From assembly GCF_002854065.1 (NCBI RefSeq), contig NZ_CP024147.1: a stretch of DNA of 64,000 nt. One strand, given 5' to 3'. The notes beneath the pieces were generated by a model. That model was not told the DNA's origin. It saw nothing but the letters and a program-made list of their open reading frames with translations, and did not search any database. Below, one piece after another: positions 46,506 to 49,516 of this stretch (positions are counted from its first letter, which is position 1; each line of letters begins with the position of its first letter). Source of the DNA: Escherichia coli (GTDB lineage: Bacteria > Pseudomonadota > Gammaproteobacteria > Enterobacterales > Enterobacteriaceae). The translations under genes and the position numbers were made by a program.

Positions 46506-46912
<407 letters not shown>

Positions 46913-46917
46913 GCATG

Positions 46918-47781
46918 TCACAAATACAGCGCCGGAAATATCAACCGGCCCACCCCGCGCACCTTTAATGCATCAGCCAACGGCTCAACGTCTTCCGGCG
47001 TGGCGCTCGCCCAGCTTTGCGCCTCGCCATACACGCCGTGGGCATGAAACGCGTTCAGGCGTACCGGAACATCGCCAAGTCCCTTGATAAACGCCGCCAG
47101 TTCTTCGATGTGTTGCAAATAATCCACCTGGCCAGGGATTACCAGCAAACGCAGTTCCGCCAGCTTGCCGCGCTCTGCCAGCAAACAGATGCTGCGCTTA
47201 ATCTGCTGATTATCGCGTCCGGTTAATTGTTGATGACATTCGCTACCCCATGCTTTGAGATCGAGCATTGCGCCGTCACACACCGGGAGTAATTTTTCCC
47301 AGCCGGTTTCGCTCAACATGCCGTTACTGTCCACCAGACAGGTGAGATGGCGCAGTTGCGGATCGTTTTTGATAGCAGTAAACAGCGCCACTACAAACGG
47401 CAGTTGGGTCGTGGCTTCGCCGCCGCTTACCGTTATCCCTTCAATAAACAGCACCGCTTTGCGGACATGGCTAAGCACTTCGTCCACGCTCATGGATTGC
47501 GCCATCGGCGTGGCATGTTGCGGACACCTCTTCAGGCAGGTATCACACTGCTCGCAGACCGCAGCGTTCCACACCACTTTGCCGTCAACAATCTGCAACG
47601 CCTGATGCGGACACTGTGGCACGCACTCTCCGCAATGATTACAGCGCCCCATCGTCCACGGATTGTGACAGTTTTTGCAGCGCAGATTGCAGCCCTGCAA
47701 AAACAGAGCCAGACGACTGCCTGGCCCGTCAACGCAGGAGAAGGGGATAATCTTACTGACTAAAGCGCATCTGCTGTTCAT
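46918..47781 (-). CDS. yjjW: Radical-SAM glycyl-radical-enzyme activating protein YjjW
   Basis: Track ORF, 287 aa, CxxxCxxC motif ([13 protein letters not shown]) plus additional Cys clusters. Confidence 0.85.
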
Positions 47782-49303
47782 GGCTTATCACGCGCGGCTG
47801 GCGTTCCAGAATACGAGTGTTGCGTGCGGCTTCTTCGCCCAGCCAGGTGGTGTTGGTGCGTGAACCTTCGGCGCGATATTTTTCTAAATCCGACAAACGC
47901 ACCATATAACCGGTAACGCGAACCAGATCGTTACCGCTGACATTGGCGGTAAATTCACGCATTCCGGCTTTAAAGGCACCGAGGCAAAGCTGTACCAGCG
48001 CCTGCGGATTACGTTTGATGGTTTCGTCGAGCGTCAGAATGTCGCTGATGCCGGAATAATAATAAGCATGATGCGGGGCGACAGTTTGCAGATGGGTGAT
48101 CGGATCTGGCTCATCGCCATAGGGTAAACGCGCGCCCGGCGTGGTGCCGATATCGGAACTGATCCCCGACTGTGCGTGTAACATGGCGCGTTTTTGCCAT
48201 CCATATTTCACGGGGGTATTGGCGACAAACTCCGCCAGTTGCGCGCTGATGCGATAACCCACTTCATTTGCGGCGGCTTCTTTACCGTAACGTGCGGCAA
48301 TCCCTTCTTTCTCACACAGCAAGTTAACCGCTTCCGCCAGCCCATACATGCCAAACATTGGCACAAAACGTTCAGGGTTAATCAGCCCTTCTTTCACCAG
48401 GAAGCTATTCTCAAAGAAGTGTGATTGTTGATAGAGGAATTCACACCGCGCATCGATGATGGCGATCTGCTGCTGGCAATAGTGCGGTAGAGTGCGCGTA
48501 AAGAAGTCATCCAGCGATTCGCTGCGCTCGGCAATGGCTTTCAGGTTAAGGCGTACCAGCGTGCTGCCACCACCCGCCAGCGGCAGTGAGTTGTAACAGC
48601 TCACAATCCCGTAGCCCCCTTTTGTGAAAATTTTATCATGCACCGGACCGTTGGCGATGTGCGGTTTGCTACATTCACAGATGTTCTTCGCCACTTCCAG
48701 CAGCAGGTCATCAGGGGTGATTTCAGGATCGTAGATAAAGGTCAGGTTCGGTGAAACCTGCTTCAACTCTGCGTCTGCACGTAAGATCGCGCGGGTAATG
48801 GGCGAATCAGACGGGCCGATATTGGCGTGCATAAAGGCGTCTGGCAGGGTTCTGTCGAGGTAACGCCAGAAACGTTTTATTCGAACATCGATCTCGTCTT
48901 GTGTTAGAATTCTAACATACGGTTGCAACAACGCATCCAGTTGCCCCAGGTAGACCGGCATCGATGTGACCGACGGTACGTGGTGGTAAAGAATGGTCAG
49001 CAGAGAGAGTGCGTCATCAAGATCTTTCGCGCCTTCCAGCTCCAGCCATTCGGAACCGTTCGCCAGAAAACGGGCGTAATCGGGTAAGACATAGCGCGGT
49101 TTGTACGGCGCATGACCTTCAAACATATCGCAGATTACACCCTCATCCAGCGCGCGGCGGGCTTCGGCAGGAAGCTGCGGATAAGGCAGATTGTTTTCTG
49201 CTTCCAGAGCCAGAAAATGGCGCTTCTGCTCCGGGCTAAGCACTGGGCTGGTGACAATTTGCTGGCAACGTTGTTGCAGTGCATTTTCATGAGAAGTGGG
49301 CAT
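47753..49303 (-). CDS. yjjI: YjjI-family glycine-radical-enzyme-like protein
   Basis: Track ORF, 516 aa; overlaps the yjjW start by 29 nt. Confidence 0.85.
48623..48638. promoter_or_regulatory. DeoR operator-like site (candidate deoOE), inside the yjjI coding sequence
   Basis: TGTGAAAATTTTATCA, 12 of 16 matches to the DeoR palindrome, 280 bp upstream of the next operator. Confidence 0.45.
48903..48918. promoter_or_regulatory. DeoR operator (deoP1-type), perfect palindrome TGTTAGAATTCTAACA, inside the yjjI coding sequence
   Basis: Exact 16-bp palindrome; 598 bp upstream of the second operator. Confidence 0.65.
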
Positions 49304-49500
49304 CTTCTTTTCCTTTTATGCCGAAGGTGATGCGCCATTGTAAGAAGTTTCGTGATGTTCACTTTGATCCTGATGCGTTTGCCACCACTGACGCATTCAT
49401 TTGAAAGTGAATTATTTGAACCAGATCGCATTACAGTGATGCAAACTTGTAAGTAGATTTCCTTAATTGTGATGTATATCGAAGTGTGTTGCGGAGTAGA

Positions 49501-49516
49501 TGTTAGAATACTAACA
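49501..49516. promoter_or_regulatory. DeoR operator (deoP2-type) TGTTAGAATACTAACA with adjacent CytR/CRP region
   Basis: Palindrome about 45 nt upstream of the deoC ATG, preceded by ttgtgatgtatatcgaagtgtgtt. Confidence 0.65.

Follow-up and report, generated by a model that had tools for sequence, protein, structure and literature searches.

We analysed a 64,000-nucleotide stretch of the Escherichia coli contig NZ_CP024147.1 (assembly GCF_002854065.1; hereafter the window, numbered from its first letter) and focus here on two minus-strand genes, yjjI and yjjW, that encode a candidate glycyl radical enzyme (GRE) and its activase. The coding sequence of yjjI (47753..49303, −) specifies a 516-aa protein that the open reading frame (ORF) listing and profile matches far above the cut-offs place in the YjjI family of glycyl radical enzymes (PF11230 / TIGR04040). 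That of yjjW (46918..47781, −) specifies a 287-aa radical S-adenosylmethionine (SAM) glycyl-radical activase (TIGR04041) with a ferredoxin-like insert. An earlier note, made from the letters of this DNA alone, had described a YjjI-family, glycine-radical-enzyme-like protein of this length, a radical-SAM activase bearing a CNLRCKNC motif, and a 29-nt overlap between the two genes. All three descriptions hold: the motif occupies residues 31–38 of the translated YjjW, and the 3′ end of yjjI and the 5′ end of yjjW share positions 47753..47781 (ATGAACAGCAGATGCGCTTTAGTCAGTAA, −). The overlap probably couples the genes translationally, and it is retained in nearly all Enterobacteriaceae loci as well as in Proteus, Providencia and Xenophilus (yjjW start 9523, yjjI end 9551, in locus positions). 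The 3.1-kb yjjI–yjjW stretch matches complete E. coli genomes at 100% identity, with the RefSeq gene order yjjV, yjjW, yjjI, deoC, and is found at ≥80% coverage in 5422 of 5426 such genomes, so the pair is core to E. coli. Both genes are already annotated and are not a discovery; what our analysis adds is a lead on the class of substrate.

YjjI scores 732 bits against PF11230 (cut-off 23) and 787 bits against TIGR04040 (cut-off 498). Both TIGR04040 and TIGR04041 carry the NCBIfam label ‘hypoth_equivalog’, which marks the function as undefined. When 1.84 billion cluster representatives were searched exhaustively, relatives turned up in 541 clusters, about two dozen of them full-length, and conservation was read from an alignment of 26 diverse homologues reaching down to 29% identity. 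The translated glycyl-radical motif R462-V-T-G465-Y466 (47906..47920, −) contains the predicted radical site, Gly465, and both R462 and G465 are invariant in this alignment. The finger-loop motif S235-C236-Y237-N238 (48590..48601, −, likewise from the translation) holds the predicted thiyl-radical residue, Cys236, which is the sole invariant Cys of the protein; the other Cys residues that follow it in E. coli YjjI (C276, C287, C329 and C440) are not conserved. Gly465, Cys236 and ~60 further positions are invariant or nearly so across ~30–40% identity, the archaeal member included. Strongly conserved polar residues are R70, Y71, D123, D150, H159, N186, K213, N218, R251, E305, H376, Q378, D384 and R392.

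A single-sequence search of the PDB with YjjI returned only noise (E about 1), and no PDB chain belonging to the YjjI family was found. With the family profile, which brought out both pyruvate formate-lyase (PFL) and NrdD, the best sequence-profile match in the PDB is PFL (E 3.5e-4). That alignment pairs S235-C236 with C418-C419, VRLNL with ARANL, and RVTGY with RVSGY (Gly734), and it places R251 and N253 opposite R435 and N437 of PFL. Structure prediction, which the earlier note had proposed as a check, gave a confident AlphaFold2 model (predicted local distance difference test, pLDDT, 91.2; predicted template modelling score, pTM, 0.91) of a barrel; the glycyl-radical loop (Gly465) and the finger-loop Cys236 are those identified by alignment. 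The top 21 Foldseek matches of this model are all class III ribonucleotide reductases (RNRs), ahead of PFL-type enzymes. Alignment to E. coli NrdD with hhalign covers 407 columns (E 6.8e-5); it misregisters the Cys loop, and for that reason no residue-level match of YjjI Asn253 to the catalytic NrdD Asn is relied on. Four hallmarks of the GRE superfamily are present in the system: an RVxG[FWY] motif, a finger-loop Cys, a predicted ten-stranded α/β barrel and a dedicated activase.

YjjW scores 398 bits against TIGR04041 (cut-off 250) and also matches PF04055 and PF13353. Its translated C31-x3-C35-x2-C38 motif (47668..47691, −) would supply the ligands of the radical-SAM [4Fe-4S] cluster. The ferredoxin-like insert (47524..47643, −) contains two CX2CX2CX3C motifs (47611–47643 and 47524–47556, −), which are predicted to hold two auxiliary [4Fe-4S] clusters; Fer4-family matches fall at residues 42–95. 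Among characterised families the best match is the hydroxyproline-dehydratase activase (141 bits), and the score against the PFLE_PFLC model TIGR02494 (136 bits) lies under its cut-off of 174. NrdG models give 46.8–62.9 bits against cut-offs of 126–131 (TIGR02491, 46.8 against 126), and the PflA equivalog TIGR02493 gives 123 bits against 231.75. At the sequence level, YjjW resembles the ferredoxin-insert activases of eliminases and is unlike NrdG or PflA. Distant YjjI relatives (archaeal L084-L086; L089-L091; L096; L numbers denote loci) are paired with short activases of ~247–251 aa that lack the ferredoxin insert, so the two-cluster insert is not essential to the system. We consider it very probable that yjjI–yjjW is a genuine GRE–activase pair.

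Comparison with the characterised enzymes sets YjjI apart from each of them. E. coli NrdD, a class III RNR, has 712 aa; YjjI is ~200 residues shorter and has neither an ATP-cone nor an extra N-terminal domain. The second catalytic Cys of class III RNRs lies on the barrel floor (Cys175 in E. coli, Cys79 in T4). YjjI lacks a second conserved active-site Cys, and the PMFNCML segment of NrdD stands opposite a Cys-free, invariant PRYxLPDY (PRY--VLPDY in E. coli). The Cys4 zinc ribbon near the Gly loop is missing as well, there being no conserved Cys past residue 236. The NRDD profile PF13597 did not match E. coli YjjI at E ≤ 0.01, and matches of its relatives are weak or faint. The activase is of the NrdG type in class III RNRs, whereas YjjW is of the ferredoxin-insert PflC type. 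YjjI was accordingly rejected as a member of the class III RNRs, for want of the second Cys, the Cys4 zinc ribbon, a PF13597 match and an NrdG-type activase. With PFL (PflB/TdcE with PflA) YjjI shares the Cys loop, the next R-x-N-L strand, the RV(S/T)GY Gly loop and activation by FNR. It differs in having Ser235-Cys236 where PFL has the Cys418-Cys419 dyad, in lacking the ~250 N-terminal residues of PFL, and in an activase that falls under the PflA equivalog cut-off. Neither PF02901 (PFL-like) nor PF01228 (Gly_radical) matched E. coli YjjI, and its placement as a PFL or other keto-acid formate-lyase failed on the dyad, on these two profiles and on the activase.

Glycyl-radical 1,2-eliminases carry a general-base Glu at the second position after the Cys (G-C-x-E). 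This Glu is present in glycerol/propanediol dehydratase, CutC, HypD, IslA and the E. coli anhydro-sugar-phosphate enzymes YbiW/PflD, whereas YjjI has a nearly invariant Asn238 in its place (S-C-Y-N) and is smaller by ~300 residues; YjjI was rejected as a Glu-containing eliminase on this position. An activase with two auxiliary ferredoxin-type clusters, predicted in the case of YjjW, is common to the eliminases and YjjW, a likeness that the insert-free activases of some YjjI relatives, archaeal and high-GC ones among them, do not share. A ‘spare-part’ role resembling that of GrcA is ruled out by the full barrel with its own Cys loop. Lacking the second conserved Cys, the zinc ribbon, the Cys-Cys pair and the Cys+2 Glu, YjjI is, as judged from its sequence and predicted structure, a minimal and distinct glycyl-radical family, closest in fold to NrdD and outside every characterised family.

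The genomic setting of the family was surveyed with a locus search, whose closest 80 loci are almost all from Enterobacterales, and for distant contexts nine representatives and, as a tenth, a Lachnospiraceae relative were looked up, and distant members served as seeds for one metagenome scan. Neighbours within ±6 genes were clustered over 89 loci, which form 33 YjjI groups at 70% identity. The ORF caller gave no YjjI ORF in 18 of 107 loci and spurious antisense ORFs in high-GC contigs, so the neighbour counts are conservative. In all of the closest 80 loci yjjI is followed by yjjW, and in 29 of the 33 groups the activase gene adjoins yjjI in the same orientation; at L089–L091 (group g10) it was missed by the caller, and official gene calls show a co-directional downstream activase. 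A comparison of this kind across taxa had also been proposed in the earlier note. The activase is the only near-universal neighbour, and just one further theme recurs, the uptake and catabolism of nucleosides, which appears in 8 of the 33 groups and is backed by Pfam matches. These nucleoside-linked groups are spread over three separate deep clades of a neighbour-joining tree, in at least five gene orders.

The arrangements are as follows. Enterics have a divergent deoCABD beside yjjI; in Gilliamella the genes immediately upstream, in the same orientation, are deoD, one for a nucleoside transporter, add, cdd and pdp. In a clade of Lachnospiraceae/Eubacteriales relatives (L176, L175 and L152), a PNP_UDP gene and a Bmp gene (PnrA-like binding protein) precede YjjI and its activase, which are followed by the ATP-binding cassette (ABC) ATPase, two permeases, DeoC, adenosine deaminase and phosphopentomutase, the spacing between genes ranging from −8 to 129 nt; L156 has the order of L176 and ends with cdd and deoB. 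At L171 the Bmp transporter genes come before YjjI, which overlaps the last permease gene by 8 nt, and at L126 YjjI and the activase are followed by a Bmp transporter, an amidohydrolase and PNP_UDP. L164 and L151 have permeases, an IU-nucleoside hydrolase, an M20 peptidase, a GATase-like protein, a LacI regulator, YjjI with its activase, and a second nucleoside hydrolase. L088 has a nucleoside hydrolase, a PfkB kinase, the activase and YjjI, and L100 has a divergent adenosine deaminase. We also observed an M20-family amidohydrolase, a GATase1-like protein, or a 458-aa Amidohydro_1 protein in some of the nucleoside-linked operons (L164, 4667-6687; L126, 15050-16426). The last of these (L126) is possibly a nucleoside or base deaminase, and the presence of such genes hints at modified or unusual nucleosides as the real substrates. 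The family is abundant in gut Lachnospiraceae/Eubacteriales (3939 proteins at E ≤ 1e-30 among the candidates examined). In the archaeon, YjjI is flanked by genes for eIF-1A, eIF-2B, NMD3 and RIO1.

Published data describe yjjI as an anaerobically regulated gene. It is directly activated by FNR according to chromatin immunoprecipitation (ChIP) and expression data, with an FNR ChIP peak at 4,615,181 and a transcription start listed as ‘TSS not known’ (PMC3688515). It falls in an FNR-activated cluster alongside nrf genes in a study of the HU regulon (PMC2634741), and it is induced anaerobically in Yersinia intermedia (PMC3792023). The ChIP peak maps to ~49396 of the window (by offset from a published σ54 motif position), ~25 bp from a site that footprinting predicts for FNR (CGCATcaggATCAA, 49364..49377, −), centred about −40.5/−41.5. 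Its right half-site, within GGATCAAA, is conserved upstream of yjjI across Enterobacteriaceae in a footprint alignment of 17 genera. The predicted −10 hexamer, TACAAT (49337..49342, −), lies 21 nt downstream of the FNR half-site and reads TACAAT or TACACT in the 17 genera. This layout is predicted from sequence to be a class II FNR promoter, with the site centred near −41. A scan upstream of yjjI with the FNR consensus (TTGAT-N4-ATCAA, ≤2 mismatches) gave nothing convincing, only the right half being conserved, and a generic promoter/terminator scan gave counts no different from shuffled expectation.

The earlier note had placed the pair back-to-back with the deo promoter region. This stands for O2/deoP2, which is intergenic (49501-49516); it does not for the DeoR operator O1 and an OE-like site, both of which lie inside the yjjI coding sequence. 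O1 is a perfect palindrome (TGTTAGAATTCTAACA, 48902-48917), 599 bp from O2, that encodes V130-R131-I132-L133-T134 in a variable loop of YjjI. The OE-like site (48623-48638, codons D223–T227) is exactly 279 bp from O1. O1 is found at the same codon position with 0–2 mismatches in every one of the 57 loci, ranging from Escherichia to Hafnia and Edwardsiella, that have deoC next to yjjI; the 24 loci without this adjacency all lack it. Since O1 lies inside yjjI, transcription from deoP1 must cross the first ~390 nt of the gene and its promoter in antisense, and yjjI expression may thereby be tied to deo induction.

The distal CRP site of deoP2 (TGCGAtctggtTCAAA, 49415-49430) is centred at 49422.5, that is, −93.5 from the deoP2 start near 49516 and about −92.5 from the predicted yjjI start. 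It is separated from the predicted yjjI FNR centre by 52 bp, about five helical turns, and lies on the same face. The divergent deoP2 and yjjI promoters may share this site, in which case FNR and CRP may jointly activate yjjI, with CytR as a modulator. The arrangement recalls the ansB promoter, at which FNR and CRP act together; we take this likeness as a lead only. CRP ChIP peaks have been reported within and beside yjjI (PMC4287617). A second CRP site (CGTACCGTCGGTCACA, 48965-48980, −), ~50 bp from O1 on the deoC side, corresponds to an intragenic yjjI ChIP-seq peak of enterotoxigenic E. coli (ETEC) H10407 (PMC4287617) and is unchanged here.

Two further features border or lie within yjjW. 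A σ54 promoter-like motif (CTGGCTCTGTTTTTGCA, 47696-47712, −) inside yjjW codons ~24-29 coincides with IS57, a strong σ54 ChIP site that lies within the gene in sense orientation (PMC4591121), and stands just after a GC-rich hairpin (47727–47706) flagged by the terminator scan. The convergent yjjV/yjjW gap (46520-46906) is filled by a tandem repeat of the repetitive extragenic palindrome/bacterial interspersed mosaic element (REP/BIME) type, with a 101-bp unit, 3.8 copies and 95% matches. Three of the copies match Rfam RF02564 (naRNA4, a nucleoid-associated noncoding RNA) at 74–79 bits, and the six-frame ORFs of 69–114 aa in this gap are artefacts of the repeat.

No biochemical study or solved structure of YjjI or YjjW was found in the searchable literature, subscription-only papers lying outside this coverage, and within it the earlier note’s description of a pair with no assigned substrate or role is upheld. 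YbiW and PflD were assigned in 2024, as cited in PMC12441222, and a 2025 list of E. coli GREs leaves out YjjI. Our reading, taken as a whole from a self-contained two-gene GRE–activase system down to the nucleoside link, is one that we hold on balance, with somewhat better than an even chance of being right. Under anoxia, and by analogy with all characterised members, YjjW would cleave SAM and take the Cα hydrogen of Gly465. The radical would then move to Cys236, whose thiyl radical would take a hydrogen from the substrate and be regenerated in every turnover. In E. coli, FNR turns on yjjI–yjjW, from a promoter predicted to be of the class II type, and YjjW is probably made through translational coupling at the overlapping stop and start. 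From gene context and fold, we tentatively propose that YjjI acts on a nucleoside or on a pentose derived from one, either ribose or deoxyribose, with or without a phosphate, an assignment whose chance falls somewhat below one half; the enzyme would then serve the anaerobic breakdown of nucleosides, supplying the Deo enzymes or operating in parallel with them. Since YjjI has only one conserved Cys and no reductase-type Cys pair, a reduction is less likely than a redox-neutral radical elimination or rearrangement at the ribose ring, which would amount to the first half-reaction of RNR without the reducing step; this proposal is more apt to fail than to hold, and we regard it as unlikely in absolute terms. 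Similarly doubtful, and at the lower end of that range, is the reading of YjjI as the founder of a new functional class of GREs, with RNR-like abstraction of the ribose-ring 3′- or 2′-hydrogen of an imported nucleoside, or of a hydrogen of (deoxy)ribose phosphate, leading to a redox-neutral elimination or rearrangement.

Several observations weigh against the nucleoside link. No experiment ties YjjI to any substrate, and the conserved Arg251, opposite Arg435 of PFL, suits a carboxylate as well as a phosphate substrate. The E. coli pair is divergent from deo, the only regulator reported in the literature consulted is FNR rather than DeoR or CytR, and the enterobacterial adjacency of yjjI and deo could be inherited synteny. 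About three quarters of the sequence groups have no nucleoside neighbours, and the contexts in Proteus, Providencia, Vibrionaceae, the archaeon and high-GC lineages are of other kinds. On the Lachnospiraceae contigs L180-L182, YjjI stands alone, with no activase or nucleoside gene within 9 kb, and is ~75% identical to the YjjI of the L176 nucleoside operon; its activase must be encoded elsewhere or shared. Finally, the excess of nucleoside neighbours over chance, 8 groups observed against ~1 expected at ~3% per group, speaks for the link but is a rough estimate made with an assumed background.

The same neighbourhood data leave a strong alternative, with a likelihood short of one half, in which YjjI is a true GRE acting on a common metabolite unrelated to nucleosides, and its neighbours reflect enteric synteny, chance or operon shuffling. 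The activase alone is near-universal and most contexts are heterogeneous, as this account would have it, and PFL and NrdD, both enzymes of central metabolites, are well established to be likewise encoded with little beyond an activase. It has to contend with nucleoside genes being the only recurring functional theme, in three deep clades and at least five gene orders, and with the pair being inserted, in some cases, among the genes of one Bmp-type ABC transporter operon at overlaps or gaps of ≤129 nt, for which chance is hard to credit. A stripped-down class III-type reductase, converting ribonucleotides or ribonucleosides to their deoxy forms with, for example, formate, has a fold in its favour and strikes us as improbable: Cys236 is the only invariant Cys, PMFNCML is replaced by a Cys-free PRYxLPDY, and neither a conserved Cys4 zinc ribbon, an ATP-cone, an extra N-terminal domain nor a PF13597 match (E ≤ 0.01) was found. 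The activase is of the PflC/ferredoxin type, far from the TIGR02491 cut-off, and E. coli already has nrdDG.

We rate as less probable still the view that YjjI works as a C–C lyase in the manner of PFL, with a 2-keto acid or some other carboxylate as its substrate. In its favour, the top PDB hit by sequence profile is PFL, R251 and N253 lie opposite R435 (a pyruvate-binding arginine of PFL) and N437, and FNR activation resembles the regulation of pflB. With Ser-Cys in place of Cys418-Cys419, however, the acyl-enzyme mechanism is unavailable to YjjI, PF02901 and PF01228 do not match, the fold is nearer NrdD, and YjjW fails the PflA equivalog. From the co-clustering of yjjI with nar genes (narG) in E. 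coli and Salmonella, participation in the anaerobic metabolism of nitrogen oxides (nitrate, nitrite or nitric oxide) was proposed, under a speculative ‘nitrogen metabolism’ label (PMC3228777). The multi-species bicluster of that study, with its FNR- and NarL-like motifs, and the grouping with nrf genes noted above (PMC2634741) both favour such a role. Shared FNR dependence accounts for the co-expression, however, nitrogen-oxide genes are among the neighbours in 0 of 33 groups, and glycyl radicals and activase clusters are destroyed by nitric oxide, according to a preprint (bioRxiv 10.1101/2025.02.23.639758), which fits poorly with a part in nitric oxide chemistry; we find this role very improbable. 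That YjjI is a decaying or non-catalytic relic is scarcely credible. No phenotype is reported in the searchable literature, and one Lachnospiraceae genome has no adjacent activase, as a relic might lead one to expect, but the genes are kept in 5422 of 5426 E. coli genomes, Gly465, Cys236 and ~60 other positions are (nearly) invariant, the activase pairing and the overlap are conserved, and the operon is regulated and expressed.

Within the searchable literature, yjjI encodes the last glycyl-radical-type enzyme of E. coli K-12 without an assigned reaction, and establishing one would enlarge the known radical chemistry of anaerobic metabolism. The YjjI family extends from enterics and gut Firmicutes to at least one archaeon. 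Were the nucleoside link to hold, YjjI would represent an unrecognised step in the oxygen-free use of nucleosides by gut and enteric bacteria. Should it also found a new class of GREs, there would be a radical route, from E. coli to gut Lachnospiraceae, that carries ribonucleoside carbon into the DeoB/DeoC pathway. A small enzyme so close to the class III RNRs bears on the origin of RNRs from simpler radical enzymes, and YjjI would then possibly be a living analogue of the pre-reductase ancestor of ribonucleotide reductases.

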